Positions 47,092 through 63,546 of a stretch of DNA of 64,000 nt are shown one piece after another; the first letter of the stretch is position 1; every line of letters starts with the position of its first letter. The translations under genes and the position numbers were made by a program. This stretch comes from Patescibacteria group bacterium (GTDB lineage Bacteria; Patescibacteriota; Microgenomatia; UBA8517), in NCBI GenBank assembly GCA_035291665.1, contig DATDRP010000003.1, positions 212,549 to 276,548 on the forward strand, read 5' to 3'. The notes below the pieces were generated by a model. It made no database searches. It was given only the letters and a program-made list of their open reading frames with translations, and was not told where the DNA came from.

Positions 47092-47523
47092 ATGGTAATT
47101 TATAACAAAAAAGCAAAATTTAACTATAAACTGTTTGAAACTTTTGAGGCAGGGATAGTCCTTTCCGGCTCAGAAGCCAAGTCAATTCGGACACATCGGA
47201 TCGATTTGTCCAATTCGTATGCAAAAATCATACAAAATGAAGTCTTTTTGATTAATGCAAATGTCCCGATACCCGGAAAGAAGGATTACGATTCAACGAG
47301 AACCCGAAAATTGCTTCTTCATACACGCGAAATTACGTCAATACAATCGAAGATCAAGGCTAATAAATTGACTCTGGTACCAGTTAAATTGTATAATACT
47401 GGACATCTTTTTAAGCTTCAGCTTGCGTTAGCTAAGGCTAAACGTAAGTTTGAAAAGAAAGATAGTATCAAAAAAAAGGATATTGAGAGGGAAATTTCCT
47501 CTCAGTATAAGAGTTCAGTCTAA
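47092..47523 (+). CDS. smpB: SsrA-binding protein SmpB
   Basis: NKKAKFNYKLFETFEAGIVLSGSEAKSIR is the canonical SmpB N-terminus. Located immediately upstream of the tmRNA. Confidence 0.9.
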   Translation: MVIYNKKAKFNYKLFETFEAGIVLSGSEAKSIRTHRIDLSNSYAKIIQNEVFLINANVPIPGKKDYDSTRTRKLLLHTREITSIQSKIKANKLTLVPVKLYNTGHLFKLQLALAKAKRKFEKKDSIKKKDIEREISSQYKSSV

Positions 47524-47576
47524 GCCTAAGGTGTGTAAAATTTCCTTAGACTTATACCTAAACTTAGACTTTTTTT

Positions 47577-47974
47577 GGGGACGACCGGTTTCGACGGGAA
47601 AGCACCTTAAAAAACTGCAAGCCGAGTTTAATTCACACTCGCTAATAATGGATTAACAAATAAACGCTGATAACGAAAGTTACAGTCCAGAAGCAATAGC
47701 TTCAACTTTGCTCGGTACTAACCAAGCCAATTGGGCATTTGCTTAAACACTGGTGTCGTTTGAAAGGTTCTCAATCGTTTCAAAACGGCATAAACCTATT
47801 GAGATAAGCCAACAGCCGTTGACTGCAAGCTGTAGGTCGAAAAATATTCAGTCTTACTTGAAAGAAGGTCGTTAGTAATCTAACTTTCAAGAAAATATAA
47901 AAATACTAACTAAGCTTGTAAGAAAAGTTTTTTATTTACTTTTTCGGACGAGGGTTCGATTCCCTCCGTCTCCA
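47577..47974 (+). ncRNA. ssrA: tmRNA (ssrA)
   Basis: 5' GGGGACGACCGGTTTCGACGGG. 3' GGACGAGGGTTCGATTCCCTCCGTCTCCA paired with the 5' end. Internal tag ORF ...ANWAFA-stop. Confidence 0.9.
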
Positions 47975-47983
47975 CATATAAAA

Positions 47984-48146: not shown

Positions 48147-48239
48147 GTCGAACTTGGTTTCGCCGAGTCAAAGCGAAAGCAAGGTTGACGCAGGTAGTCG
48201 AGTTTGACTCGACACCTTCTTTTTGTATATATTTTGTTC

Positions 48240-48524
48240 ATGAACAAAACGTCAGACGTTTTGTTAAAATTCTACGTTTATACACTTCTCTCACTAAAGG
48301 ATAAAAAATTTTATACTGGTTACACTACCGACTTGAAAATTCGGCTTACTCAACATTCAAAAGGTTTGGTCAAGTCCACAAAGTTAAGAAGGCCTTTCAA
48401 ACTAATTCATTACGAATATTTTATAAACGAGGAAGATGCAATGTCCCGAGAGCGCTTTCTAAAAAGTGGTTTTGGAAGAAAACAATTAAAAAACGCATTA
48501 AAGAGAACTTTGAGAAATATTTAA
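48240..48524 (+). CDS. GIY-YIG nuclease family protein (UPF0213-like)
   Basis: FYVYTLLSLKDKKFYTGYTTDLKIRLTQH matches the GIY-YIG motif. Start taken at the internal Met. Confidence 0.65.
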   Translation: MNKTSDVLLKFYVYTLLSLKDKKFYTGYTTDLKIRLTQHSKGLVKSTKLRRPFKLIHYEYFINEEDAMSRERFLKSGFGRKQLKNALKRTLRNI

Positions 48525-48559: not shown

Positions 48560-50425
48560 TTAATTTAGTCCAAACTCCCACAGCTTTTCGGGGGTCATTA
48601 CCAAAACCTTATCATCGACAACCAAGATAGCATTTGCATCGGAAAATACATCGCTTTCGTAATATTTTTGATAATTCCCCTCTTTGTCAAATACGACAAT
48701 TCTTTTTAGGTTGGGTACAAGAATATATAACTCATTTAGATTTTCGTCCGTATATATGCTTTTCCCATCAGCTATTTCAAACGGTACACCTTTAGGTGTA
48801 AAAGATATATCATTTCCCAGGCTGAAACGTCGTATTTTACCGCTACCTTTCAAAACCCAAATACTTCCGTCAAATGCCCATGAGACCGAGTCGCCAATAT
48901 CAGAACTTTCAGCCGTAAGCCACGCCGATCCGGACGAAAAACCCGACTCCGTACCTGCATATTTCGTAATTGATCCTTTACTTTTACTTAAGAAGTACAA
49001 GTTTGAAGCAAAGGAATACAATAACCCGTCGTCAAAATCCGCATCAACCACCCTTTTTAAGGACCCTCCGCTCTCCGAATATATACCATCATTTTTTAGT
49101 AAATATACATTTCCGAGGCTTGAAGATATTCTTTTTGAACCCTCAACAGCATCTGACCCCAAGAAACTTAACGATTTCTTACTCTCAAAAACTATCGAAA
49201 CCACTTTTTTCGATTCAGACGACAAAACATAAATTGTTCCGTCAGATATGGTTATATCGCTTCCCTTGAACCCATCCGACAGGAGTGTTAAGTCCAAATA
49301 AAGCTGGGGATTAACCATATACTCCCCCAAAACCTTACCCTGAGAATTTTTAATATTCGCAGATAATTCTGTCAGTTTTGAGTCGTCAATTCCCCGGGAG
49401 GTGAGAGATTCTGTGATACTTCTTGACTCAATAAACATGTCCCTTGCCCTATTCGGATCAAGCGCTATCAACTTCTGCGATTCATCATATAAAGAAACTG
49501 CTTTAATAAGATCTGATTCATACGAGCTTTTATATTCTGAGTCCTGCTTTTTCTTAAGACCAAAGACAACGCTTACTCCCAATAAAGTAAGAAGAATCAA
49601 ACCAAGAAAAAGCGTACTTTTCTTTCTACTCCCACCGGCGACATCTTCCTCAAAACGGGATTTTACAATTATTCTTTTTACGGGGATAAGGCCTTTTAGT
49701 CTTTCCAAAAAATTAATTTTCGGATATTCCGGTTGAGTGGCTTCTTCATCAACAACCTCTTGAGATGCGTCCTGGGTATCAAGCTCTTCAAGTGTTTTTT
49801 GAAGTTTGCCGGTAAATTCTATTACCAAAACACCTTTCTTCCCCGAACTTCCGTCATTTGAAACCATGGGGGCAAGAACTTCAAGGGCGTCTTTTAGACC
49901 ATACCCCAGCGCGTTTTTCAATTCGGAATTTTTTATCCCTGACATGAAGCCGTTTGTTGAGAGAATCAGGAAATCTTTGTCTTTTGCGTAGCCGTTTGCA
50001 GAAATCACTTTTTCGCCAAAACTGTCAAGAATTCTGACCAGATAGTTATCCCTCAGAAGGATAACTTTTGTACCGTTAGTGCAAACGGCATAAATATTAT
50101 TTCCGACTACAGAAACGGCGGCGATTTCAAAATGGAGCAGGAATTTTTCAAATTCATCATAAATTTTGACAACCGCATCCCGTAAAGCGTTAAGGGGTTC
50201 TTTATCAATATTTCCAAAATATTCCTCCTGCAGCCTCTGAAGACATTCTCTTCCCAACTTGGCGCTTTCTATATCAATATTGTCCTTGCTGGCGCTGAAA
50301 AGAACATGAATTTTTCCCCTTTTAATCTGCTTTTCAGGAGTGGCAGGGAAAAAATCATACGCCTGTGTCCATCCGGAACCGTCGGGGTTACCGGTAAGCT
50401 TTACGCAGTTTGTTCCCAAATCCAT
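48560..50425 (-). CDS. membrane protein with N-terminal cytoplasmic degenerate PP2C-like domain and large extracytoplasmic beta-rich domain
   Basis: AAVSVVGNNIYAVCTNGTKVILLRDN resembles PPM motif 3-4 without the GDSR metal ligand. Single TM near residue 265. Confidence 0.4.
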   Translation of the reverse strand: MDLGTNCVKLTGNPDGSGWTQAYDFFPATPEKQIKRGKIHVLFSASKDNIDIESAKLGRECLQRLQEEYFGNIDKEPLNALRDAVVKIYDEFEKFLLHFEIAAVSVVGNNIYAVCTNGTKVILLRDNYLVRILDSFGEKVISANGYAKDKDFLILSTNGFMSGIKNSELKNALGYGLKDALEVLAPMVSNDGSSGKKGVLVIEFTGKLQKTLEELDTQDASQEVVDEEATQPEYPKINFLERLKGLIPVKRIIVKSRFEEDVAGGSRKKSTLFLGLILLTLLGVSVVFGLKKKQDSEYKSSYESDLIKAVSLYDESQKLIALDPNRARDMFIESRSITESLTSRGIDDSKLTELSANIKNSQGKVLGEYMVNPQLYLDLTLLSDGFKGSDITISDGTIYVLSSESKKVVSIVFESKKSLSFLGSDAVEGSKRISSSLGNVYLLKNDGIYSESGGSLKRVVDADFDDGLLYSFASNLYFLSKSKGSITKYAGTESGFSSGSAWLTAESSDIGDSVSWAFDGSIWVLKGSGKIRRFSLGNDISFTPKGVPFEIADGKSIYTDENLNELYILVPNLKRIVVFDKEGNYQKYYESDVFSDANAILVVDDKVLVMTPEKLWEFGLN

Positions 50426-50503
50426 TTTTTAATATTTTAAAACGAAAAAAGTTTATCAGTTAAATATTCGGTAACTTCAAATGCTAAAACCTTTAACGGT
50501 GTT

Positions 50504-50728
50504 TCACATTATTATCGAATAAATAAAAACCAAAATTGCTGTAAACAAATGAAGGGCAGCAGCAATTCTTAATGGTTTCTCAAAATTCACTTCAAGAGTT
50601 TGAGTCATAATATTAACCTGCTTCAAAACCACAAATGCAAAAACAACATACAAAGCCATACCAACAATAGCTGCAATTTTCAGGATAATAAATCCTGTTG
50701 ATTCAAGCTGCGGTATTTCAAAGGGCAT
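50504..50728 (-). CDS. small two-TM membrane protein
   Basis: 74 aa. Start overlaps the upstream gene stop. Confidence 0.3.
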   Translation of the reverse strand: MPFEIPQLESTGFIILKIAAIVGMALYVVFAFVVLKQVNIMTQTLEVNFEKPLRIAAALHLFTAILVFIYSIIM

Positions 50729-51501
50729 TATCTTACCCTCCCTTCCAATTTTTCTACTTCTTCCTCAATACGAAGCTCTCTCAGAACTTTAGCAACTTTG
50801 TCCGGAAACGGAACCGCTTCGAATTCTATCTCTGGAACTTCTGAAGCAGTCTGGACTAGAACATCGCCATAATTAAACATCGTCCTTATTCCTCCGCCAA
50901 GCTGGACTGTAACGTCCTGGATTTGGTCAATATTAGCATCTGTCATTTTTCTGTAAATTAAATTGTAAAAATCTACATCAAAAATCCGCTCATCAGTAAT
51001 TATATTTACGGAAAAAAACCAATCTAAAAATTTTTCAAACATATAAGCAAAGACTAATAAATACCATGCCATAACAGCGAAAACCTGATAACTCGCAGGG
51101 ATACTTTCAAAAGGCGGAAGGATAGTAAAGAACGACGGAGCTATTATCAAAAAGAATGATGCTATTACCCATTTAATATTTGTTATTGCATGTCTTCGTA
51201 ATATTAAAACTATTCTTTCCTGGGGATCTTTGTTAACAAAATCAGCACGCGTCGGAAAATAAATATACGACGCCAATGGATTTGAAGTGTATCCGGGCAG
51301 TTTCTCGGCAGCTTCTTTTGTAAGCGGATATTCCAAAGCGCCTGCTTTTTCGGCAACTTTATTTTTCTTGATGCCATCAAGTATTTCCGGAAGTTTCTTT
51401 TCCGATACCAAGTTGCTCTTTACTTTAGCTTCTGCATTCTCAATGCTTCCGGGCTCCGGATTTTTCGCGATGGTATCTTTTGATATAAATAAATCGGGCA
51501 T
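50728..51501 (-). CDS. membrane protein with bPH_2 (DUF304, YdbT-like) domain
   Basis: Two TM helices. C-terminal DERIFDVDFYNLIYRKMTDANIDQIQDV...GDVLVQT pattern. Confidence 0.5.
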   Translation of the reverse strand: MPDLFISKDTIAKNPEPGSIENAEAKVKSNLVSEKKLPEILDGIKKNKVAEKAGALEYPLTKEAAEKLPGYTSNPLASYIYFPTRADFVNKDPQERIVLILRRHAITNIKWVIASFFLIIAPSFFTILPPFESIPASYQVFAVMAWYLLVFAYMFEKFLDWFFSVNIITDERIFDVDFYNLIYRKMTDANIDQIQDVTVQLGGGIRTMFNYGDVLVQTASEVPEIEFEAVPFPDKVAKVLRELRIEEEVEKLEGRVR

Positions 51502-51664
51502 AACTTAGTTACTAGAGAAAAGTAAAAAGTGCATAGTCAGTTTGAGTTCAATACTTACTGGATTATAACATTTGCGAGTGTAAATGTTTAAGCGGGGGTG
51601 CTTTTATATTTTACAAACTTATTACTTTTCTCTTTTCACTTATCTCATTGTACTAAGTACTAAA

Positions 51665-53458
51665 TTACAGTTTCTCTAAATTATAAAGCGAGCTTTTTAA
51701 CCCGACATAACCGGGCGCCCGAAGATTGAAAGCTTTTTTAAATTCATCTCCGGGAATATTAATGCTTCCTTTGTTTGTCGAAAATATTACAGTTTGAGTT
51801 GATCCTGAATTGGAATAAACAACACTTATAGATGAAGCACTAGTAAATCCGCCGATCCCGGCAAGATCACTCAAGGAGTAGGGATTACCACCCCAGCAGC
51901 TGGTATCAACCGGACTTATCCTTGAAACATCTCCCCCGCCTTTATTTAAGACACTCCAGGCGTTTATTATGTCTGCAGTTTGTTCACTCGTCAGCCACGG
52001 GTTTACCTTACCGCAAGTCGCGCCTGAACGGGATTTGTACCAGCCTTTGTAAAACCAAGGGGATCCGGAAATTTTTTCATAGGCTGAATTTGGCCAATTA
52101 CCGTCTTTGGCATCTTTTATCCCTGTCCATCCCCATTGGGATATGGTAAATCCTCCCGCAGTAGATGCGTAATAAGTCTTTGCCGGAGTTCCCCCGACAG
52201 TCAAAACCCAACCTCGGGTATCGCGTACTGCCTGTGCCCATTTACCCGATTTTAGCTGTGGCTTATACACCTGACAGCTTTCGGTTGTACAAATACTTCC
52301 GGCTCCGTTATTGGTGTACGAAAGTGCGTAAGTCCTGGCGGCAACCGCCTGCGCTTTGAGAGCTTCGTACCCGCCATTATCCCCCCACTTTTCGGGGACC
52401 TCATAAATTCCAAGGAGGTAATTTTCCTCAAAAGAAACCCTTCCGATGCCGGTCACTCCGATGGTTGCCGGAACGGGATAATTTTTATTAAGTGTTGCAC
52501 CCTGAAAATAATCCGATAAAATTTGTTCTGCCGATTGACCTGATTTTGATCTTCCGTACGCGCCGTATTGGCTCATGCCTGTTCTATGGGGCGCACCAAA
52601 TGAAAACGCAGCAAACGCCGGGCGGTATCCGGGGTCGCAAAAATTTGCAGAGCCGGGCGGACCGGAACAGGGTTCAAGCGTTTCAGGAGTATCTCCGACC
52701 GAGGTTTGGAAGCCTCCCTCCTTTTGGGCAATCAGGGCTTGCTGTTTGGAAGACAGAGTAGCCAAATAGCTTTCTGTTTTTTCAACCTCCACTGATAGGA
52801 ATGCTGCTCTTTCTGAAACGTTTTTCTTAACAGATGCAAGCAATGTCTGGTTTTTTTCCAGACTTTCCTTATCGCTTTTCAGTTTTACCAGATCTGCCGC
52901 ATATTTCTCCATCGTTTTTATGTCCTCACCCGTTGCTTTTTTACGAAGATTAATTTCTCTGAAGGCGTTGCTGGCATTGGCGGCAGTAATAAAAGCCTGA
53001 AATTCATCGTAAAAGCGGATAAAAATATAGTGATTTTTTGTTTTTTCTTCGAATATTCTTTGCGCGTACGCAAGATCGCCTTCCCGCTCTTTAATGTTTT
53101 GTTCTGTAACTTTCAACTGCGCTGAAAGAGCTGCAATCTTTTTTTCTAAAGAAGATATCTGGATTCTTAAATCAGCCAACTCTTGTTTGTTATATTCGTG
53201 GGCGGGTTTAAGAGCGTCGATCTCTTTCTGAAGTTTGTCCAAACAAAAATCAATATCACCTATACTTGGAGCATCGCAGTTCGGTTCGGCAGTCACATAC
53301 CGAAGCTTTGCTCCCAGAAGGAAAAAGGGGGAGATAATAATTAAGAAGGTTACCAGCAAAAATAATTTACTCCCAAGTGGAGGTTGGGGCTTTCCGGAAA
53401 TCATAGTAAAATAATATTTATCCATGAAATACTTCATTAAAATTATATCAGGAGTCAT
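51665..53458 (-). CDS. SpoIID/LytB-domain protein with N-terminal signal anchor and coiled coil
   Basis: GMSQYGAYG motif plus Trp/Gly-rich C-terminal half. The start may be the internal Met near 53404, as it overlaps the divergent gene. Confidence 0.55.
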   Translation of the reverse strand: MTPDIILMKYFMDKYYFTMISGKPQPPLGSKLFLLVTFLIIISPFFLLGAKLRYVTAEPNCDAPSIGDIDFCLDKLQKEIDALKPAHEYNKQELADLRIQISSLEKKIAALSAQLKVTEQNIKEREGDLAYAQRIFEEKTKNHYIFIRFYDEFQAFITAANASNAFREINLRKKATGEDIKTMEKYAADLVKLKSDKESLEKNQTLLASVKKNVSERAAFLSVEVEKTESYLATLSSKQQALIAQKEGGFQTSVGDTPETLEPCSGPPGSANFCDPGYRPAFAAFSFGAPHRTGMSQYGAYGRSKSGQSAEQILSDYFQGATLNKNYPVPATIGVTGIGRVSFEENYLLGIYEVPEKWGDNGGYEALKAQAVAARTYALSYTNNGAGSICTTESCQVYKPQLKSGKWAQAVRDTRGWVLTVGGTPAKTYYASTAGGFTISQWGWTGIKDAKDGNWPNSAYEKISGSPWFYKGWYKSRSGATCGKVNPWLTSEQTADIINAWSVLNKGGGDVSRISPVDTSCWGGNPYSLSDLAGIGGFTSASSISVVYSNSGSTQTVIFSTNKGSINIPGDEFKKAFNLRAPGYVGLKSSLYNLEKL

Positions 53459-55100
53459 AAAGACAAAGCTATTTAAAATTTTACTTCCTATCTTTATAAG
53501 CGGATTTTATATTTTCCTGAACCCGAAGATTCTTGATGCACAAACCAGCTTTTCCTACACATCGTTTACCCACAGGTCTCAGTTGAATACCGATCAAATA
53601 AACGCCTGTGTTACAAATGACCATGCCTATTTTACTGCACAGGGAATTTCCAGCGGGAGGTATATTTACGTACTTTTCCGACAAACCGGAGGAGATTATT
53701 ATCCAATCCTTCCTGATTTTACTATTAACACTAACGGTTCCGATTATACTTGGGACCAAAGATTTGATTTTATAACCGCAGGTTTTCCTCAGGGGTTATG
53801 CGCAACGGCTTCTGCATACGATGTCCCGACCGGCACCTACCAAGTACGGCTATATGACTATACAAGCTGGTTCAATTTCATAAATAGCGGCACTCCGACA
53901 ACCAATTATGGCGTAAGCAGTTCCTACGGTGGAATCTTGTACATTTCAACTCCCACCCTCCCAACCGCAGTACCGACAGCGGGTCCGACCGCCACACCGC
54001 CTCCATCATGTTCTTTGGCATATTGCTCCCAAGACACAGCAAGATGTACAGAGTCAATATGTGTAGGGTGTCCTTTTTGCGGATGTCCTGATAATCTGTT
54101 ATCGTCCAATGAAGAAAAATTTGCTTTCTGTTCGAGTGCATCAGTGGTTCCCCCAAGCGGACCGGGAAATACCAGTTTCACCTTTGAAGGAAGAAATTGT
54201 GTAAATATCGGAAGCGCTTCATATTACCGGATGAGTATCTATGATGGTAACGGTTTAATAAACTCTTCAACCCCCCAGATTTATGCCGTTGATGCCGATT
54301 CTGACGGGCAAATGGATGATGTTCGGGCTTCAATAGCTCTTGCAACTTTTCAGAATCCGGGAACTTTCTATGCAAAATTGTTTGCTCCCTACACAGACAT
54401 TTCCGGAAATCCGTTTGTTGGTGCCCAGTGTGCTCCTTTCGGGGTAACCAGCCCTGTTGCGTCCTCCACCTGCTGTAACATTGATCCTTCATCTAATCCT
54501 GCAGCCTTTTGCGGTCCTCCTTTGGGATGTACCAATGTCGGATCAAACGATCCCAGTCTTTGTCCCGCATCCTGTCCGCCGGAACGTTTTTACTGCACAA
54601 GCGAAGTCTGGGTTTGTATGAATCGTAACGCCTGTAGCGGATTTTTTACAGGTAATGCGGGAACATGTCGTTTTGCAAGATGTCCGGAAAATATGGTTTT
54701 TGATGGGTTTAACCCTCCGACGAATAACGATTGTCCGGTATTGTTTGCCTGCTGTACTGATCCGCAACCTGCAATAACAAGAGCGCTTCTTAATACCGGC
54801 TGTACGACAACAGACGGTCAGCAAGGTATAAATACGGCTGTTGGTTGTATCGCAACCACAACTAATATTCAATTCTTAACTTTTGTACTTCCTTGGGCAT
54901 TGGGTGTTGCAGGCGGAACTTCATTCATTTTATTTATTGTATCAGCAGTTATGTTTTCAACGTCCGCGGGAGATCCCCAAAGAATTAAATCCGCAAAACA
55001 ACTCTTCTGGTCAGCGTTAACCGGACTTATAATGATCATTTTTTCCGTTTATTTACTTAATTTGATAGGTCTTCAGATTCTCCGACTCCCGGGAATATAA
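53424..55100 (+). CDS. large Cys-rich secreted protein with C-terminal TrbC/VirB2-type (T4SS) pilin domain
   Basis: Signal peptide, about 40 Cys, YQVRLY module. C-terminus ...FVLPWALGVAGGTSFILFIV-SAGDPQRIKSAK-...TM2 is homologous to the small pilins downstream. Confidence 0.6.
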   Translation: MKYFIKIISGVIKTKLFKILLPIFISGFYIFLNPKILDAQTSFSYTSFTHRSQLNTDQINACVTNDHAYFTAQGISSGRYIYVLFRQTGGDYYPILPDFTINTNGSDYTWDQRFDFITAGFPQGLCATASAYDVPTGTYQVRLYDYTSWFNFINSGTPTTNYGVSSSYGGILYISTPTLPTAVPTAGPTATPPPSCSLAYCSQDTARCTESICVGCPFCGCPDNLLSSNEEKFAFCSSASVVPPSGPGNTSFTFEGRNCVNIGSASYYRMSIYDGNGLINSSTPQIYAVDADSDGQMDDVRASIALATFQNPGTFYAKLFAPYTDISGNPFVGAQCAPFGVTSPVASSTCCNIDPSSNPAAFCGPPLGCTNVGSNDPSLCPASCPPERFYCTSEVWVCMNRNACSGFFTGNAGTCRFARCPENMVFDGFNPPTNNDCPVLFACCTDPQPAITRALLNTGCTTTDGQQGINTAVGCIATTTNIQFLTFVLPWALGVAGGTSFILFIVSAVMFSTSAGDPQRIKSAKQLFWSALTGLIMIIFSVYLLNLIGLQILRLPGI

Positions 55101-55148
55101 TTGGCCTGAAATATTCTTGGATGCTGATATAAGATATAATAAATTGAC

Positions 55149-56588
55149 ATGAAAGCGATTGTAAAAAATCTTCTATTTTTAGCTTTGACAATATTTTTTT
55201 TTATCGCTTCGGATGAACTTACAATTGCGCAGGAATACGGGACTTACAGTTGTACCTATATTCCGACAAGTCCTTCCTGTTCCGGCAACCCAGCCAGTTG
55301 TACAACCTATGGCTGCCGATTCCCAACGGATGACAGTACGGCTGGTTGCGGCCAATTTAACGGCGATGCCGTGCAGTGTTCTTCATCCACTTTCGCCTGC
55401 GACTTCTGTCCGATTATGACTCATTCCCCGATGCAAATAAGTGATTGTTCCCAGGGAGTAAGGTTTCAGGCATTGCTTCTTAATGACACCATGTCCTATA
55501 CCATTAGGCTTTACAATCTTGGCAACGGCCGTTTATACGATGTACCCCAAGCGTCAATTGTGTCTCAATCTTCATATGACCAAACTTTATATTTTGATGT
55601 AACCGATATTAATGACGAAAACCTTGTGCTTTGTAATAATTCTCAAACCAGTGCAAGAATCCCGTCGGGTTTCTACCAAGTTAGGTTGTATACACAGGGG
55701 ACTTCTTATTACCGCGTCAGTAATGCCGGAAGTCTTTACTTTGTCCAACCTGTAATCACACCCCAACCCGGGACCTGTTCCTGTAACCAAAACGGTACAG
55801 CGTGTACGGTAAATTCAAGCCCCACCTGCAACTCAGGCTACTTACCCTCCTGCTTCTATGGGGGAACATTTTGCGGATGTAATTGTGTTACCCCCACTCC
55901 GGGGGGATCAGGGCTTCCCTGTCCTGTAACAACGCCCGGCATCCAATGCTGCGCTTCTTCATCCGCCTGTTCCTCTCCCGCCGGTACGGTGTTAACTCAG
56001 TATTCATGTGCGACCGGTGTCTGCTGCCAGGGTGCATGTACGGCAGTTGCTCCGACTGTCGCCATTCCTCCCGAATTCGCCGCATGCGATACGACCTGTT
56101 CAGCAAATCCGGAACCATACACGATAGGAAATTGTTCCCGAACCGGAGGTAATCCGGACACTTCAAAATGCCAGCGTCCGGTTTCAAATCCGGGATATGA
56201 CTGTAATATCAACGGGGTAACCTATGACTGCTTTTGCTGTTCGGAGCTTCTTTCGTCATCTACTGCAGCACTCACCCCAAGACCATCTCTTCCTGCCACT
56301 TGTGCTAACAACGGAATAGATACTGCAATCGGATGTTTGCCTGTGGGGAACCGCCAGCTATTCTTGCAATTTATTCTTCGCTGGGCACTGGGAATCTCGG
56401 GTGGAACTGCTCTTGTCATGATTGCCTATTCCGGAATTTTAATCATGACAGCACAGGGCGATAAGCAAAGACTTCAAACCGGCAAGGAATTTTTGACAGC
56501 ATCGGTGGCAGGCATAATGATGATTATTTTTTCGGCGTATTTATTGCAGCTTATCGGTGTAACCATATTCCGGCTGCCAGGAATATAA
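55149..56588 (+). CDS. large Cys-rich secreted protein with C-terminal TrbC/VirB2-type pilin domain (paralog)
   Basis: Same architecture. C-terminal 85 aa nearly collinear with the previous gene (…ILRWALGISGGTALVMIAYSGILIMTAQGDKQR…RLPGI). Confidence 0.6.
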   Translation: MKAIVKNLLFLALTIFFFIASDELTIAQEYGTYSCTYIPTSPSCSGNPASCTTYGCRFPTDDSTAGCGQFNGDAVQCSSSTFACDFCPIMTHSPMQISDCSQGVRFQALLLNDTMSYTIRLYNLGNGRLYDVPQASIVSQSSYDQTLYFDVTDINDENLVLCNNSQTSARIPSGFYQVRLYTQGTSYYRVSNAGSLYFVQPVITPQPGTCSCNQNGTACTVNSSPTCNSGYLPSCFYGGTFCGCNCVTPTPGGSGLPCPVTTPGIQCCASSSACSSPAGTVLTQYSCATGVCCQGACTAVAPTVAIPPEFAACDTTCSANPEPYTIGNCSRTGGNPDTSKCQRPVSNPGYDCNINGVTYDCFCCSELLSSSTAALTPRPSLPATCANNGIDTAIGCLPVGNRQLFLQFILRWALGISGGTALVMIAYSGILIMTAQGDKQRLQTGKEFLTASVAGIMMIIFSAYLLQLIGVTIFRLPGI

Positions 56589-56632
56589 GTAAGCCGTTTA
56601 TATCCTGCCATAAAAAATATAGAATAATAACA

Positions 56633-57211
56633 ATGAAGAAAAGTCTATTTACACTCTTACTCATCGCCTTCGTGGGTTACTTCATGATCCTTAAACCTGA
56701 TATTGCCAGCGCTCAGGGGTACGGTACCTGCACCTGGAACGGTCCGGAATTCGGCGGCTACTGTCAAGTGGGCTCGGTAAATTGCGATCCTAACTGTTTC
56801 GCACCGGCAAGTGCATGCGTCGGAATCCAGTTCAGTTCCTGTCCCGGCGCAACATTCGTCTGCGGCAACTGCTTTGTCCCACCAACAAGCGCACCGCCGC
56901 CTCCCAGCAACCTGGACTTTAATAGCTTGTATAGCGCAATTGGTTTTCGATTCGGCGGTTCAACGGTTGGCAACATTATCAGTGTTGCCAACACATATCT
57001 CTTTCCGATTGCTGGCTTAATACTTCTTTTATATCTGATATACGGAGGGTTAAATTTAATGCTGTCTGGCGGAGATCCGAAAAAAGCGGCTGCAGCAAAA
57101 TCAATTATCTCAACTGCAATTATGGGAATAATTATTATCTTTGCAGCTTACTGGATTGTTCAGTTGGTTGGAAGAATACTTGGTCTTACACAAATTTCAC
57201 TTACTTTTTAA
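56633..57211 (+). CDS. Cys-containing TrbC/VirB2-type pilin-like protein
   Basis: Signal peptide, 12 Cys in a short N-domain, then TM1-GGLNLMLSGGDPKKAAAAKS-TM2. Confidence 0.6.
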   Translation: MKKSLFTLLLIAFVGYFMILKPDIASAQGYGTCTWNGPEFGGYCQVGSVNCDPNCFAPASACVGIQFSSCPGATFVCGNCFVPPTSAPPPPSNLDFNSLYSAIGFRFGGSTVGNIISVANTYLFPIAGLILLLYLIYGGLNLMLSGGDPKKAAAAKSIISTAIMGIIIIFAAYWIVQLVGRILGLTQISLTF

Positions 57212-57214
57212 ATT

Positions 57215-57541
57215 ATGAATAAACTTGCACTTGTTGATATCGGAAGCGTTTTTGGAAGCCCGTTCGGAAGAGACAGGGGTTTTGCCGATTTTGTGTCGGT
57301 TGTTCTTTTTAATGTTATTGCATTGGCATCCGTACTTTTATTGATATTAATAATTTACGGTTCAATTACAATCATAGCCGGAGCCGGGAGCGGCAATAAA
57401 GAAGATGTTGGTAAAGGAAGGAAAGCTGTCACTTCAGCGCTCGTCGGCTTTTTGATTATTTTCGTTTCTTATTGGATAATATATTTATTGCAAAGAATTT
57501 TGGGTTTTAATATATTGCAGCCTTTTCAACCGCTACCATGA
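57215..57541 (+). CDS. TrbC/VirB2-type (T4SS) pilin-like protein
   Basis: TM1-loop(AGAGSGNKEDVGKGRKA)-TM2. 4-nt gap from the previous gene. Confidence 0.6.
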   Translation: MNKLALVDIGSVFGSPFGRDRGFADFVSVVLFNVIALASVLLLILIIYGSITIIAGAGSGNKEDVGKGRKAVTSALVGFLIIFVSYWIIYLLQRILGFNILQPFQPLP

Positions 57542-57894
57542 ATAACCTGCTCGCTCAGTTCGGAAGAGTTAACCCCCCGCCGGGAGTAAGCTCTTGGATT
57601 GCAAATGCCGGTGGAAATTCGGAAACGGGGTTGCAGCGTTTTGTTTCAGCAATTATCCAAACATTAATTGCCGGCGCCGGAATATACGCTCTTATCAATC
57701 TGGTAATGGCCGGATATTCTTTTATGTCTGCCGGCGGTAATCCGGAAAAAATTGCACAATCCTGGGGAAAAATCTGGCAGACACTCCTTGGACTTCTGGT
57801 TGCTGCAGGGGCGTTTGTTCTTGCCGGAGTATTCGGCCAGATTATATTCGGTAATCCCCGCGCGCTAATACAAATACAAATTTTTACACCGTAA
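57538..57894 (+). CDS. TrbC/VirB2-type pilin-like protein
   Basis: TM1-SAGGNPEKIAQSW-TM2. Overlaps the previous stop. Confidence 0.6.
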   Translation: MNNLLAQFGRVNPPPGVSSWIANAGGNSETGLQRFVSAIIQTLIAGAGIYALINLVMAGYSFMSAGGNPEKIAQSWGKIWQTLLGLLVAAGAFVLAGVFGQIIFGNPRALIQIQIFTP

Positions 57895-58260
57895 ATGAAA
57901 AACATACTTGCTCAAAATCCGCGAAATATTGGAGGAGAGATAAACGGTCTGGGTTCATACGGAACACCGGGGAACTCATCACCCGGACTGTTTGCAACCA
58001 TTCTCTCCCGAATAATCGGGCTTTTAACGATCGTTGCCGGAATATTTTTTATTTTTCTTCTTATTTCGGGGGGCATCGCCTGGATGTCGGCAGGAGGAGA
58101 TAAGGGAAAACTGGCGAGTGCCAGAACCAGCATGGTTAACGGAGCCGTTGGACTTGCTGTTGTTGTTGCCGGAATCTTTATCGTCCAAATCATTGGAAAC
58201 ATTATCGGAGTCGGAAATTTTCTTGATCCGGTTAACTTAATACAAAGGATAACCCCCTAA
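57895..58260 (+). CDS. TrbC/VirB2-type pilin-like protein
   Basis: TM1-GGIAWMSAGGDKGKLASAR-TM2. Confidence 0.6.
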   Translation: MKNILAQNPRNIGGEINGLGSYGTPGNSSPGLFATILSRIIGLLTIVAGIFFIFLLISGGIAWMSAGGDKGKLASARTSMVNGAVGLAVVVAGIFIVQIIGNIIGVGNFLDPVNLIQRITP

Positions 58261-58303
58261 CCCCACCCCTTGACAAGAATTTTGCATGGCCGGATAATAT
58301 TAA

Positions 58304-58642
58304 TTGGATATGAGAAATTTATTGGCTCAAGGTTATGTGGTTAATTTGGATCCTCCCAACCAATTTCAAAATCTTGAAAATATTGATTTTGGATCACTCG
58401 TAACCATCGCGATTGCGTTTGTCATGATCGTTGCCGCCATTGCATTCTTCTTTATCCTGATCTTGGGTGGAATCAAATGGATCACCTCCGGTGGGGATAA
58501 AGGTAGAACTGAAGCTGCCCGCAGTCAGATTACAGCTGCACTTATTGGTCTTGTAATCGTATTTGCTTCCTGGGCAATCCTAAATATTGTGGAAAACTTC
58601 TTCCAGGTTAATTTGAGAAGCTTTAATCTCAACCTGTTTTAA
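58304..58642 (+). CDS. TrbC/VirB2-type pilin-like protein
   Basis: TM1-GGIKWITSGGDKGRTEAARSQ-TM2. Confidence 0.65.
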   Translation: MDMRNLLAQGYVVNLDPPNQFQNLENIDFGSLVTIAIAFVMIVAAIAFFFILILGGIKWITSGGDKGRTEAARSQITAALIGLVIVFASWAILNIVENFFQVNLRSFNLNLF

Positions 58643-58714
58643 ATCTTAAAAAGCATAAATTACTTTGAGATTTTTAGAACTTATTTCTAAAAACCGAAAG
58701 GGGGTGGAAAAAAG

Positions 58715-59041
58715 ATGAATCTATTAGCACAAGACACAGTCGTACTTAATGCTCCGGCAGGTTTTGAAAACCTTGAAAACATTTCGTTCGGAGGATTAGT
58801 GGGACTTGCTATTTCGTTCGTTCTGATTATTGCCGCAATCGCTTTCTTCTTTATGTTGGTCCTAGGTGGAATCAAGTGGATTACCTCAGGAGGAGACAAG
58901 GGAAAGACAGAAGCAGCCAGAAACCAGATTACAGCCGGATTGGTTGGTTTGGTTATCGTCTTTGCTGCGTGGGCAATATTGACTCTAATTGAAAGCTTCT
59001 TTGGTGTAAGTTTGAGGACATTTACAATTCCTGGAACTTAA
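58715..59041 (+). CDS. TrbC/VirB2-type pilin-like protein (close paralog of 58304)
   Basis: TM1-GGIKWITSGGDKGKTEAARNQ-TM2. Confidence 0.65.
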   Translation: MNLLAQDTVVLNAPAGFENLENISFGGLVGLAISFVLIIAAIAFFFMLVLGGIKWITSGGDKGKTEAARNQITAGLVGLVIVFAAWAILTLIESFFGVSLRTFTIPGT

Positions 59042-59067
59042 AGAAACATGCAAGGAAGAATCAATTA

Positions 59068-59097
59068 AAAAGCGGTCTTTTGTAAGGCCGCTTTTTA
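59068..59097 (+). terminator. rho-independent terminator
   Basis: AAGCGGTC-ttttgtaa-GGCCGCTT followed by TTTTTATT. Confidence 0.55.
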
Positions 59098-59198
59098 TTG
59101 TCTTGAGCATTGATAAACAAATCTTCTTAAACTAGAATTTATATGGTAGTAAAAAGAGATAAGGGCAAAGTTAAAAGTATTTAAAAAAAGGAAAATTT

Positions 59199-59528
59199 AT
59201 GAAACTCGCACAACTTATTAATCCAGTTCCCGGTGTCCATACCACAGATAATGGAATTGCAACAATAAAGGGTTTTGAATGGATTTTTAACAACATTGTC
59301 TTTTCCATCATCGCATTTGCCGGGATCGCTCTTTTTGTCATGCTTCTTGTGGGAGGATTTAAGTATCTGACGTCCGCAGGAAACCCTGAAAGCGTAGCTG
59401 CAGCTCAAAAAACTTTAACTTATGCACTAATCGGAATGGTCCTTGTTGCATTATCGTTTTTGATATTATTTCTTATTCAGACCTTTACGGGTGCGAATGT
59501 CACCGTATTCAACGTGACGGTTCCTTGA
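59199..59528 (+). CDS. TrbC/VirB2-type pilin-like protein
   Basis: TM1-GGFKYLTSAGNPESVAAAQK-TM2. Confidence 0.6.
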   Translation: MKLAQLINPVPGVHTTDNGIATIKGFEWIFNNIVFSIIAFAGIALFVMLLVGGFKYLTSAGNPESVAAAQKTLTYALIGMVLVALSFLILFLIQTFTGANVTVFNVTVP

Positions 59529-59613: not shown

Positions 59614-62600
59614 ATGACAAAAAAATTGTTCGCAATTGTCTTTTCATTCTTATTTTTAGCAAAGAGCTATTCAATAATTTCGGCGCAAACTCCAACAACT
59701 CTTGATTGTACAAACGGATTCCAAACGCTTTTCCCCGATCAAACAAGCGCAATAACCTACAAAGAAGTGACCCTCACTTCCCCCAGAAGAATGGTTGTCC
59801 ATATTGTCAAAGCCAACATCAATAGCGGGGATCTTGATTTTACAACAACGCCGCGAAAATATTTGGGATCAACTACTTCGACTTTTTTAACCGGCGTCGA
59901 CGCAGCGGTTGCCATAAACGGAAGCGGTTTTTTTGAGTCCGACCCGGAAGATCCGACCGGATTTAATTCATATCAGGGAGACCGATACTCATCCGATTCG
60001 GGATTGGGAATTTTGGGTTTTTTCATCTCCGAAGACAACGTTCCATCATTCACCTATTCAATCCCATCACCCTTGTGGGATGCATTAAGCGGCGTCAACC
60101 TTCTTGTGAGCAACAATAATATTTATGATCGATTAATAAGCTGCCCCCTTCAAAGCTGCACCCCTTCCGGCTGTGACACATCATACTGCACAGTTGCTCC
60201 CAGAACCGCACTTGGATTAAACGATGATAATATAATAATTATCGTCGTAGACGGCCGGTTGCCGGGTTACAGTGAAGGAGCAAGACTTGATGAGCTGGCG
60301 ACGATAATGCGAAGGTGTGAAGCGACAAATGCCGTAAACATGGATGGCGGAGGTTCTTCAACACTAGCCGCATCGGGCTTAAATTATACAGGTAATCAGA
60401 TTTTAAACCGCCCGAGCGACGGAACGGAAAGAACCGTTTCGAACCATTTCGGAATCTGTATTGGATCGTGTTCTGATATCAGCAGCAACCCGATTCTTAT
60501 ACTTCCTGAAGGGGAAGCCAGACCAAGATATCAGGCTGGTGCGGAGTATCCATTCCCATGTAACAGAAGCGCCCCTGATAATAGCATTCCTTTCTCCGAT
60601 GATGAATTTCATTCCTTAAGACCCTATCAGGCAAGTCCCTGCAATCCAAATAAGGAAGATCTTGCGCTTTTTTGCGGAAATGACTTGTTTGTCGGAGACA
60701 ATGTCACAATCATAAAAACCAATTATGAACCCCCCACTATTCCTGCTTACTCTGTAAACGGATCCCCCGCTTCACCCAATGTACCTTCCGATCCTTACAG
60801 CAATGCATGCTTTATCTGCGGAGATAGCGGCTATTGTCAAAGAACGCTGAATGTATATTGCGACAGCTCAGCCGATCAGTGCGACCCCAATATAACAAAC
60901 TCCTGCAGCCGGTGCATTAATAACGGCGACGGAACGGAAAGCTGCTCATTTGTTATTTCTTCATCAAAGCAAATAGCGGTGGATCTCTTTGGAGCGGAAC
61001 TGCCGATTATGGGTTACACCGAGCCCTCAGTGGGAAACACTAATGGACCGAAAGTGATAAACAGCCAAAACAAAACCGACGAAACCATGGATCACGCAAC
61101 AAAGATGAATGAATATGTCAGCTGGTACTTGAACGGTGTTATCGGAAGAGCCGAATATGATTTTCCCGACCCTACCCCCGACTGCGTCGGGGAATCATCA
61201 GACAAACCCGGCTGGTGTGAACCGTTGGTCCTCGGAAGTAATTACTGTATGACAAAAAGTTCAGTTCCTCTGGTTGGAGCAACCCCCAACTTCGATCATA
61301 TTGCCGATGGAAAGGATACCTGTTCTTCGGGAGAATATTGCTGCGTCAGCCAGTCAACTTCTGACAGTGGCAAAATTCCTGACCGGGAAATAACCAGTAA
61401 TTATTCCGGTCCGGTAAAAAAACTTCTTCCTTTTACTATCCAAAACATAGAAAGGATCGCTGAGATCAATGACGGTTTTGCTTCAAAAAATCTTGATACT
61501 CGTATCCGACATGATCAGTACGTAGGCTGCCACTTCGGTGGAATGTTTAATGTCAAAATTCCCTTTACAAGTACGTATGTTGATTTTTCGATTCTGGCAA
61601 TTCCAACACAATGTTACGGAGGCGGTTTTGTGGATTATATCAGAGACGAACTGCACCTGAGTGAATTCGCACCAAACAATCTTCCACCCGTTGAAGAAGA
61701 TTACCAGGGAAGGCCGTTTATTGAATTCCAAAAGGATTACAGGGAGTGGAAGGGCGACTGGTGTTATCCTTTGACGATCAATATTCCGATATTCGGTACT
61801 TTTCAATTCCTTTTGTGCTTTAACAATCCATTCAGTCCGGATATCTTTTCAAACCTTTTCAGCTTTACTCCGTTCACGTCAACCGAAGACCGACTGGGGG
61901 ATGTCAGGGTCAGGTCGGTTGGAATAGTTCCGATCGGATCCAACCTGCGGTTGATTTCCTACAGACTCAGGAACGTTAAAAATGCGGACCTCTTCTTTGC
62001 CCACATGGAAGAAGACACTCAGCTTTCTGCAAATCTTCAGGATACATTCATTTATAAAGACGCCGATCGCGATGATATCGGTTCGTCCTCATTTGTACCC
62101 TATGAACCATATTGCAGCTATCGCCGGGTCATTACTAATCCCGGAGACGATCTTTTTGCCGGAGAAATCTCAGCCGATGTTGACTATACGGTTGCTCTGA
62201 CCTGTCCCTTTTTTATCTGGGGAGATGGACAGAATGCTGATTACGGCAACCTTTGCCGGAACCTGAATAATGCGGAGTGTGTAAGAGCAATTCCCGCGGA
62301 TGCCACTTGGTGTGATGTAAGTTATGGGCAATTCGACTGCATCGGAGGACAAATTTGCGGTGTGAATTGCCAATCGGTGGTTGGAGTAGACGAATCAAAT
62401 TGCGAGTCCGCAGCAGCACTGGATTTTCCCAGTTTACCGTATGTTAATTCGGAGAACCCGGGTTGTGTACCGGAAAGCTTTGATGGTATATGCGAGGAGG
62501 TCAGCGATTATCCCAGTAGATCTCCTTATAGTATTCCCTACCCATACTGCAGAAGCGGATTTAAGTGTGTTTTCAATAAAAATACCTGTACGAGAAGCGA

Positions 62601-63546
62601 CCAGCAACCAACGACTACTCAAGCCTGTTATGGGCAAACACTGGTTGGCATAAGACTTCAGACCCGTACCCCTCTTGCGGATAAAGTCTGGGCAAGACTC
62701 GTTGCAGGATCAACCAGCGTTTTCAGGAAAATGTTTCCCAAAGTCGGAGAAGAAGGTGCCCCCATTGAAGGCATAGAAGATATCCCAACAGCAACAAACG
62801 TTACATATCAAAATCTTTCCGGAGGTCTTTTGTTTGCCGGTAACCCAGGAGATCAAAGACCGGGAAGCGCTGCCCAGCTTTACTTCCCCCATATCGGAGC
62901 TCTCCGGGAATATTTTCTCGGCGGGATCCAAACAATGCTGCGTCCTTATGAATACAAAGACACATTGATAAGCTCAACCTTGGAAGGAAGAACTCCAACT
63001 TATGTTTCCTCTGACTGCGGAGGCATTTCCGACGATCAGGTACCAGAACAATATTTGGGGGCGCTTAAGGAAGAATTCATCGCCTACTGTAATAAATTCG
63101 CCGGGGGAAACTTGGGTGAAGCCTGCTATAACGATATGGTCGTCAAATCCATAGCAGCCAATGTCAATCCGGCTTTCACCATGTCTATTTGGATAAACGA
63201 GTCTGCCTGCAGCAACTATACCTTCGGGGATATCGTCAATGATTTCGGAACGATGCTTGCACCAAGTAAAAATTACGAAGAGCAGCTTGATGCTTTCCTT
63301 GATAAAAGTACTGTTTACTGGACACACACTTCAAACTGCTACCAAAATTCATGGTTTTTGAGTTACATGCACGCATTTTTGTCATTCTTCAAAGCAGGAG
63401 ACACGGACGGAGACTGCCGGCCGAATAGTACCGCCGATGCGGAAAGATATTACAATGCAATAAAAGGAGTTTGGTATTCACTTATAGATATGGTAGACCC
63501 TACCTGTTATTTGCCGGATAATCCTGCGGATATGAGTTGTCCGTAG
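59614..63546 (+). CDS. 1310-aa Cys-rich secreted protein with N-terminal phosphodiester glycosidase (NAGPA/DUF2233-like) domain
   Basis: Signal peptide. AVAINGSGFF and NAVNMDGGGSSTL motifs characteristic of the phosphodiester glycosidase family. More than 60 Cys in the remainder. Confidence 0.6.
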   Translation: MTKKLFAIVFSFLFLAKSYSIISAQTPTTLDCTNGFQTLFPDQTSAITYKEVTLTSPRRMVVHIVKANINSGDLDFTTTPRKYLGSTTSTFLTGVDAAVAINGSGFFESDPEDPTGFNSYQGDRYSSDSGLGILGFFISEDNVPSFTYSIPSPLWDALSGVNLLVSNNNIYDRLISCPLQSCTPSGCDTSYCTVAPRTALGLNDDNIIIIVVDGRLPGYSEGARLDELATIMRRCEATNAVNMDGGGSSTLAASGLNYTGNQILNRPSDGTERTVSNHFGICIGSCSDISSNPILILPEGEARPRYQAGAEYPFPCNRSAPDNSIPFSDDEFHSLRPYQASPCNPNKEDLALFCGNDLFVGDNVTIIKTNYEPPTIPAYSVNGSPASPNVPSDPYSNACFICGDSGYCQRTLNVYCDSSADQCDPNITNSCSRCINNGDGTESCSFVISSSKQIAVDLFGAELPIMGYTEPSVGNTNGPKVINSQNKTDETMDHATKMNEYVSWYLNGVIGRAEYDFPDPTPDCVGESSDKPGWCEPLVLGSNYCMTKSSVPLVGATPNFDHIADGKDTCSSGEYCCVSQSTSDSGKIPDREITSNYSGPVKKLLPFTIQNIERIAEINDGFASKNLDTRIRHDQYVGCHFGGMFNVKIPFTSTYVDFSILAIPTQCYGGGFVDYIRDELHLSEFAPNNLPPVEEDYQGRPFIEFQKDYREWKGDWCYPLTINIPIFGTFQFLLCFNNPFSPDIFSNLFSFTPFTSTEDRLGDVRVRSVGIVPIGSNLRLISYRLRNVKNADLFFAHMEEDTQLSANLQDTFIYKDADRDDIGSSSFVPYEPYCSYRRVITNPGDDLFAGEISADVDYTVALTCPFFIWGDGQNADYGNLCRNLNNAECVRAIPADATWCDVSYGQFDCIGGQICGVNCQSVVGVDESNCESAAALDFPSLPYVNSENPGCVPESFDGICEEVSDYPSRSPYSIPYPYCRSGFKCVFNKNTCTRSDQQPTTTQACYGQTLVGIRLQTRTPLADKVWARLVAGSTSVFRKMFPKVGEEGAPIEGIEDIPTATNVTYQNLSGGLLFAGNPGDQRPGSAAQLYFPHIGALREYFLGGIQTMLRPYEYKDTLISSTLEGRTPTYVSSDCGGISDDQVPEQYLGALKEEFIAYCNKFAGGNLGEACYNDMVVKSIAANVNPAFTMSIWINESACSNYTFGDIVNDFGTMLAPSKNYEEQLDAFLDKSTVYWTHTSNCYQNSWFLSYMHAFLSFFKAGDTDGDCRPNSTADAERYYNAIKGVWYSLIDMVDPTCYLPDNPADMSCP

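Follow-up and report, generated by a model that had tools for sequence, protein, structure and literature searches.

What are the two large, cysteine-rich proteins that head a cluster of pilin genes in a patescibacterial genome, and could they be the part of its type IV secretion system (T4SS) that recognizes a host cell? We addressed this question in a 64,000-nucleotide stretch of contig DATDRP010000003.1 of assembly GCA_035291665.1 (hereafter the window), together with contig sequence past the window end. Nine tandem pilin genes on the plus strand span positions 53424–59528. The first two are open reading frames (ORFs) A (53424–55100, 558 aa) and B (55149–56588, 479 aa), the latter named 'hypothetical protein' by NCBI; both are assigned here to position 1 of the array. 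Each protein consists of a Sec signal peptide, a disulfide-rich modular ectodomain, a Cys-loop β-hairpin, and a two-helix membrane hairpin. Patescibacteria, which live attached to host cells, may account for much of bacterial diversity. A and B are so far the strongest candidates for the component of this T4SS that would recognize such cells, a matter of relevance to the epibiotic lifestyle and to T4SS diversity.

The window array shares with published VirB2-like arrays of Patescibacteria the pilin family (PF18895), the tandem arrangement, and a chromosomal T4SS neighborhood with VirB4 and PrgI/VirB3. Arrays of 2–11 genes, especially common in Microgenomatia, are described by Quinonero-Coronel et al. 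2025 (PMC12102498), and in Southlakia epibionticum, the one tractable species, the T4SS and its pilin array are essential for epibiotic growth (Wang et al. 2023, Cell, PMC10633639). By term searches of these two papers and of PMC12857230, the array members appear as small, sequence-divergent paralogues for which antigenic or host variation is suggested, and no large pilin ectodomains, signal-peptide-bearing first member, or fixed eight-position order are reported. The searchable literature, a body that leaves aside subscription-only papers, likewise yielded no description of fused or extended VirB2-like pilins with large ectodomains, of a first pilin with a signal peptide, or of a fixed order of eight positions. 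The arrays and the pilin family are already published; our reading of A and B is drawn entirely from sequence.

The C-terminal hairpin of A and B

The pilin module of A (residues 463–558, 54810–55097) runs from a C-x14-C Cys loop with the motif GINTAVGC through transmembrane helix (TM) 1, an SAGDPQR..K loop, and TM2 to a terminal RLPGI. In B, the module (residues 383–479, 56295–56585) is delimited by AlphaFold2 (AF2), pilin profiles, and alignment, and comprises a C-x10-C loop with IDTAIGCLP that forms a β-hairpin, a helix at 402–434, a QGDKQR loop, a second helix at 439–468, and again RLPGI. An initial annotation of this DNA had noted that the two C-termini resemble each other and the small pilins downstream. 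Pairwise alignment bears this out, with a shared 117-residue stretch at 41% identity (E 7e-27) that is in register with the C-terminal part of ORF C and with the six small proteins in their entirety. A Sec-type N-terminus (by heuristic criteria) and a C-terminal two-helix hairpin were also found in both proteins. Structure prediction helped in part: the pilin module of B could be modeled (predicted local distance difference test, pLDDT, 77.8), and the full-length model was unusable (pLDDT 38.7).

Pfam PF18895, the family 'type IV secretion system pilin', is matched by each of the nine array proteins. ORF C and three of the six small pilins exceed the cut-off of 26.6 bits, at 35–38 bits. A (17.4 bits, E 0.0047; 21.3 bits, E 3e-4, as an isolated domain) and B (24.5 bits, E 3e-5) do not reach it; their matches are sub-threshold yet significant and cover 57–62 of the 71 profile positions. 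Precomputed annotation assigns PF18895 to B. A second, independent profile, built from 167 small pilins that all come from other genomes, scores 46.1 bits with A (E 2e-10) and 41.2 bits with B (E 7e-9), and its other matches in the window are the seven remaining pilins only. Among the pilin modules of related loci, 137 of 147 match PF18895 and 9 also match TrbC/VirB2 (best E 5.9e-5). Most fusion proteins of this kind score under the Pfam cut-off, which may explain why many have no pilin annotation and are named 'hypothetical protein'.

The hairpin of this family consists of two hydrophobic helices and a short basic loop, with a conserved G-G-D/N motif and aligned invariant Gly residues. A and B retain all family-conserved positions, including the invariant Gly and the basic loop residues, and each of their loops contains three K/R. 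We assign the A/B module, from these comparisons, to the VirB2/TrbC-like type IV secretion pilins and not to the pilins of type IV pili. The latter are ruled out because signal and topology are wrong: the N-termini are of Sec type and end in A|Q, the hairpin is C-terminal, and there is no prepilin motif. No match to the N_methyl or pilin Pfam families of type IV pili appears at E up to 1. A sortase substrate is ruled out as well, as the chain ends in ...RLPGI right after the second helix, with no LPXTG-TM-basic tail. Pfam searches of A, B, and ten homologues gave no match to the VirB5 family. Profile searches of PDB sequences with 9 and with 147 pilins as input found no solved pilin; similarity to solved VirB2/TrbC/TraA and archaeal pilins is statistically non-significant, and structure searches were non-diagnostic.

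Such non-diagnostic structure searches, the sub-cut-off Pfam scores of A and B, and the fact that two-helix hairpins are a common fold would suit a generic C-terminal membrane anchor that resembles pilins by chance. This outcome, an anchor without likeness to pilin profiles, is what the initial annotation had set against its own proposal. We find instead that the hairpin matches both PF18895 and the independent profile, the latter without picking up any non-pilin ORF of the window, and that synteny of the genes at position 1 extends over 33 loci. The profile matches and the synteny refute the generic anchor, to which the PF18895 and TrbC/VirB2 matches of the other array members are also opposed, and we leave it a vanishingly small probability.

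Position 1 of an ordered pilin array

The 33 related loci come from species-representative genomes, nearly all of them Woesebacteria or Microgenomates-type Patescibacteria. Positional comparison was restricted to the 19 loci with exactly eight pilin genes. There, 2618 of 2736 cross-locus comparisons (95.7%) have their best match at the equivalent array position, which identifies the array, as judged from these matches, as an ordered set of eight orthologous groups and not as a cassette of interchangeable variants. Eight ordered positions suggest non-redundant, specialized subunits and argue against the antigenic- or host-variation cassette suggested in the literature; the arrays could then be read as sets of specialized parts in a given order instead of interchangeable antigenic variants.

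Comparison with these loci places both A and B at position 1 in all cases (19 of 19). ORF C (56633–57211, plus strand, 192 aa) maps to position 2; it is composed of a signal peptide, an 8-Cys N-terminal module, a Pro-rich linker, and the pilin hairpin (PF18895, 37.7 bits). The six small pilins (57215–59528, plus strand) are Cys-free proteins of 108–121 aa without a signal peptide. The first three (57215–57541, 57538–57894, and 57895–58260) occupy positions 3, 4, and 5, and the last three (58304–58642, 58715–59041, and 59199–59528) positions 7, 7, and 8. In the window array, positions 1 and 7 are duplicated and position 6 is missing.

Position 1 forms a distinct orthologous group in every related genome and is the sole paralogue with a Sec-type signal peptide in every complete copy; a signal peptide is likewise present at position 2 of the window and of locus L003. 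Locus L034 suggests that a first pilin of this type exists in Saccharibacteria, too. A conserved Cys loop, C-x(4-14)-[IL]-x-T-A-[IV]-G-C, directly precedes helix 1 of the position-1 pilins, and their C-terminus is usually P-G-[LIF], with short tails added in some genomes. Variation is confined to their N-terminus, whose length is between ~30 and ~430 residues across genomes, and their Cys counts are even, ranging from 2 to 46. Many are 124–137 aa long with 2 Cys, a second group has 172–232 aa with 8–16 Cys, and a minority reaches 264–558 aa with up to 46 Cys, so that the outer domain grades from absent to a hypervariable, disulfide-rich stretch of over 400 residues. This range places A and B, which we identify from their array mapping as duplicated position-1 copies, among the largest members of a graded series of N-terminal expansions of one conserved pilin. 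The initial annotation spoke of a fusion. The covalent joining of the two parts stands, and it is better described as a lineage-specific N-terminal expansion of the conserved first paralogue.

An alignment-based search returned at least 2204 clusters of the position-1 subtype. The best 120 of these at least 2204 matches measure 99–181 aa, and 17 of them have the 8-Cys pattern. Word-indexed searches gave four matches with full-length B and one with the B hairpin alone.

Position 2 also expands N-terminally, on a smaller scale, in ORF C and its counterparts in L003 and L004. Cys-rich extensions occur at other array positions too (L008 11706–12299, L033 7546–8208, and L004 478–1572), suggesting that disulfide-rich modules on VirB2-like pilins are a recurrent theme. 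In the L008 pilin (197 aa, 8 Cys) the extension is C-terminal and is likewise predicted to lie outside.

Many small pilins (57215–59528 in the window; loci L003–L026) begin with a recurrent M-x-[NK]-[LI]-[LA]-A-Q-like N-terminus, and the signal peptides of positions 1 and 2 likewise end in ...A|Q. Only 29 of 196 small pilins have the strict form, [LIVMF][LIVMAF]AQ. Agrobacterium VirB2 is reportedly processed at an Ala|Gln bond and then cyclized; by analogy, a short processed leader or cyclization is conceivable for the small pilins.

Cysteine-rich ectodomains and a possible role in host contact

The predicted Sec signal peptide of A covers residues 1–39 (53424–53540, ...KILDA|Q) and that of B residues 1–27 (55149–55229, ...LTIA|Q), where AF2 places an N-terminal helix at 2–29. 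These calls are heuristic only, resting on a hydrophobic h-region and an A-x-A/Q-like end. Gene callers differ on the start of A, which has 558 or 505 aa (the 505-aa form starts at residue 54), and on that of the divergent SpoIID-domain gene (597 or 564 aa); the longest ORFs of the two overlap at their starts by 35 nt (53424–53458). The signal peptide and A|Q site common to all orthologues are found only in the 558-aa form of A.

Behind its signal peptide, A has a β-rich distal ectodomain (residues 41–180, 53544–53963) with the motif YQVRLY at 53838–53855, a linker rich in Pro/Thr/Ala (residues 180–195, 53961–54008), and a Cys-rich middle region and membrane-proximal stalk (residues 196–462, 54009–54809). 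The conserved part of the A-type stalk, at about residues 398–445, reads C-x-G-x-F-x-G-x2-G-x-C-x-F-x2-CP-x4-F-[DE]-G-x-NPP...GC...CC. The Cys-rich ectodomain of B (residues 28–382, 55230–56294) is divided into a distal half (residues 28–205), with YTIRLY and YQVRLY at 55674–55691, and a proximal half (residues 207–382) terminating in ...DCNINGVTYDCFCC. The modules are set apart by Pro/Thr-rich linkers.

The initial annotation was right that the N-terminal parts are rich in cysteine. Cys counts are even, with 28 in A, 36 in B, and 8 in C, every one of them located after the signal peptide and ahead of the hairpin; Cys content is 5.0% in A and 7.5% in B, versus a window median of 0.70%. MdbA/VKOR disulfide machinery is enriched in the candidate phyla radiation (CPR; 10.1101/335083). 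The shared YQVRLY module that had been noted is genuine but short, a 25-residue similarity between A and B (z 5.7) that looks like a strand pair of a β-rich domain; the AF2 secondary structure of B is β-rich at low confidence. A second YQVRLY-like repeat within A was rejected (z 0.9–1.3).

An exhaustive HMMER search of 1.84 billion representative proteins with residues 1–474 of A gave 11 matches, one of which is A itself. The other ten all combine a signal peptide, a Cys-rich ectodomain, and the same pilin module. Their similarity to A is limited to the membrane-proximal stalk, save for one closer homologue that aligns over residues 220–474, and residues 1–220 have no relative in this set. The proximal half of B is common to L003 and the proteins P0002, P0003, and P0013; its distal half has no relative in the word-indexed search or among the collected fused pilins, the exhaustive search having covered A only. 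Both stalk types, A and B, are combined in P0013, which shows that modules are shuffled. The closest genome, L003, has the same nine-gene layout. Between it and the window, the small pilins are 60–90% identical over their full length and the SpoIID protein 75% identical; for A the alignment begins no earlier than residue 376, and for B no earlier than residue 207. From one close relative to the next, turnover of the membrane-distal part is complete, while the neighboring pilins are conserved.

By the positive-inside rule and the signal peptide, we infer that the ectodomain and C-terminus of A and B lie outside and the basic GD(K/P)xR loop inside, the orientation of VirB2. The acidic, K/R-free N-tails and basic loops of the small pilins are consistent with the same orientation. 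In the established Gram-negative model, VirB4 extracts membrane-embedded VirB2 at a platform of VirB3 and VirB6, and pilus growth takes place at the base, under a pre-assembled VirB5 tip (PMC12624023). No VirB5 or PrgB-like adhesin is reported for patescibacterial T4SSs (PMC12102498), which would make a bulky, fast-evolving first pilin the natural candidate for a distal, target-contacting subunit. The A/B hairpin would join the same assembly as the small pilins. As T4SS pili grow from the base and these systems have no reported VirB5, the ectodomain-bearing position-1 pilin might be incorporated first or sparsely, and its variable domain would be displayed at the distal end or on the surface of the structure. 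It could then serve an epibiotic bacterium as the subunit for host recognition or adhesion, with the A-type/B-type duplication giving two receptor specificities.

Array position, signal peptide, hypervariability, and topology are the grounds for this proposal. By analogy with other systems, we hold with middling confidence that A and B are specialized minor pilins presenting a host-interaction domain. A role as tip adhesin, analogous to that of VirB5, is plausible, a strict tip location being less likely than the role of specialized minor pilin. More tentative, and in our view rather doubtful, is the wider picture of a heteromeric extracellular structure built from eight non-redundant paralogues of fixed order, in which a pilin-derived tip replaces VirB5 and the exchanged ectodomain sets the host. 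If true, the pilin itself would have evolved into a receptor-binding protein, an architecture not known from any T4SS. With surveys finding neither adhesin nor VirB5, the conserved first pilin with its signal peptide offers a concrete, testable candidate for host recognition.

The initial annotation had called a pilin module joined to a disulfide-rich ectodomain the architecture expected of a tip pilin. The attachment to a disulfide-rich extracellular domain holds; the expectation does not, since the known T4SS tip protein, VirB5, is unrelated and the VirB2 class offers no precedent. VirB2/TrbC/TraA conjugative pilins and archaeal Ced/Ted pilins (PDB 8dfu, 8dft) have ~65–110 mature residues and no appended domain, whereas A and B bear 340–420 additional extracellular residues. 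VirB5, TrwJ, and CagL resemble the proposed subunit in role only, as low-copy distal subunits that contact the target cell (PMC12624023). VirB5 is a soluble helical pentamer without a pilin hairpin, unrelated to A and B in fold and ancestry, so that the likeness is one of analogy. Minor and tip pilins of type IV pili (the GspK/PilX class and PilY1-associated complexes) embody the same concept of a polymerization module with a bulky tip domain. In these, however, a single N-terminal helix follows a class III signal, cleaved by prepilin peptidase, and the globular part is C-terminal; A and B have a Sec signal and an N-terminal ectodomain before a C-terminal hairpin, and would be handled by a different assembly machine. 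Pam pili (bioRxiv 10.64898/2026.03.03.709456), recently described surface filaments specific to the CPR (Saccharimonadia and Microgenomatia) and implicated in host contact, are also made of disulfide-stabilized, β-rich extracellular proteins. Their pilins are immunoglobulin-like and assemble by donor-strand exchange with chaperone-like partners, with no VirB2 hairpin and no T4SS link, and we rejected a relationship of A and B to this separate system.

Several observations weigh against a specialized minor pilin. No pilus of PF18895 pilins has been observed, and reviews call a pilus only a possibility in monoderm Patescibacteria (PMC12857230). Polymerization, tip location, and binding by A and B are only proposed, and both proteins score under the Pfam gathering cut-off (17.4 and 24.5 versus 26.6 bits). 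A large domain cannot be needed for the core role of position 1, since most position-1 orthologues are almost devoid of an ectodomain. In A, B, and ten homologues, the ectodomains match no Pfam family, and no adhesin or lectin family among them. The full-length AF2 model of B, computed from a 5-sequence alignment, has a pLDDT of 38.7 and yields no usable ectodomain fold, so that the term 'adhesin' rests on analogy.

The main rival takes A and B for membrane-anchored accessory proteins whose hairpin is never extracted and perhaps docks to the T4SS membrane platform; the Cys-rich domain could then be a surface protein beside the channel, such as an adhesin, a wall-spanning collar, or the stalk of a monoderm T4SS. 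It gains from the fact that no CPR T4SS pilus has been seen and that Gram-positive T4SSs employ surface adhesins, not pili (PMC12102498). The Pro/Thr linker and stalk modules resemble wall-spanning regions, and a big N-terminal cargo could impede extraction via a VirB6-like platform. Yet the hairpin retains every family-conserved position, the gene keeps a fixed place within the pilin array, and the position-1 orthologues are mostly bare pilins of ~125 aa with nothing to anchor. We regard membrane retention as unlikely, without dismissing it.

Two further explanations are less likely than membrane retention. A and B might co-polymerize randomly along a heteropolymeric filament and coat its shaft with variable domains, for masking, stabilization, or multivalent binding. 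In F- and T-pilus structures, VirB2-class pilins turn their N-terminus to the filament exterior, in line with such decoration, and by a rough geometric estimate a shell of 40-kDa domains around a ~9 nm filament seems sterically possible. We consider shaft decoration improbable nevertheless: eight ordered, non-redundant paralogues argue for defined places and against random mixing, and the one or two gene copies are outnumbered by six or seven small pilins. More improbable still is that the pilin module carries a factor to be released, with the Cys-rich part a toxin, a bacteriocin-like peptide, or an enzyme cleaved off after export. Small disulfide-knotted modules do resemble secreted peptides, the linkers could be protease sites, and there is one weak, below-cut-off match to a defensin-like Pfam family (homologue P0016, E 0.008). 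However, no protease site or enzyme domain was detected in A, B, or the ten homologues, and the conserved stalk directly adjoins the hairpin with its invariant Cys loop, suggesting a permanently attached structure.

The surrounding T4SS locus

Downstream of the array, on the plus strand at 59614–63546, lies the gene for a 1310-aa secreted, Cys-rich protein (52 Cys) with a phosphodiester glycosidase domain (NAGPA, PF09992), which is syntenic with the array in most related loci. This enzyme may act on host glycopolymers or on those of the bacterium's own cell wall, working with the T4SS. The next gene, at L002 13999–15753 just past the window end, encodes a conserved 584-aa protein that has a signal peptide and five or more hydrophobic segments. 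The 584-aa protein has no Pfam match and is a candidate, on these features, for the 'missing' VirB6/PrgH-like platform, which according to the literature is scarce in Microgenomatia. Two large cytoplasmic proteins without a match in other loci are then encoded on the other strand. Farther downstream come a 377-aa protein whose N-terminus weakly matches PrgI (VirB3-like; E 8e-4), a TraC-like protein of 220 aa, and a VirB4 ATPase (DUF87/AAA_10/P-loop_TraG). These PrgI-like, TraC-like, and VirB4 genes lie ~8–10 kb 3′ of the array on the same contig, beyond the window end.

Upstream, a conserved block on the minus strand (48560–53458) encodes a SpoIID-domain membrane protein (51665–53458, transcribed divergently from the array), a single-TM 257-aa protein, a 74-aa DUF5657 protein with two TM segments, and a protein of 621 aa that matches no Pfam family. 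The block adjoins the array in about 30 loci and probably comprises further T4SS-associated components, given this synteny; VirB1-like wall remodeling is possible for the SpoIID-domain protein. About 30 loci repeat most of the gene order: on one strand the 621-aa, DUF5657, 257-aa, and SpoIID genes, and on the opposite strand the pilin array followed by the NAGPA, 584-aa, PrgI-like, and TraC-like genes. VirB4 is seen only on the window's own contig (L001/L002). From its gene content, we identify the locus as the chromosomal T4SS locus described for Patescibacteria.

Within the array, a strong terminator-like hairpin with a 14-bp stem and a T run (59066–59097) separates the eighth and ninth pilin genes, and a sigma-70-like promoter match (11/12, 58270–58298) precedes the seventh. 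Counts in the promoter and terminator scan were not above shuffled expectation and so give no evidence for differential expression. Minus-strand ORFs antisense to the pilin genes (57555–57905, 57912–58202, and 58687–58899) show 58–61% identity in L003; this apparent conservation is a by-product of sense-strand gene conservation and no evidence of genes. Farther upstream, smpB is directly followed by the transfer-messenger RNA gene (166 bits; 47092–47977 together), and next to it a 106-aa ORF at 48204–48524 (…FYTGYTTDL…R…H…) may encode a GIY-YIG nuclease domain, as its sequence resembles one.

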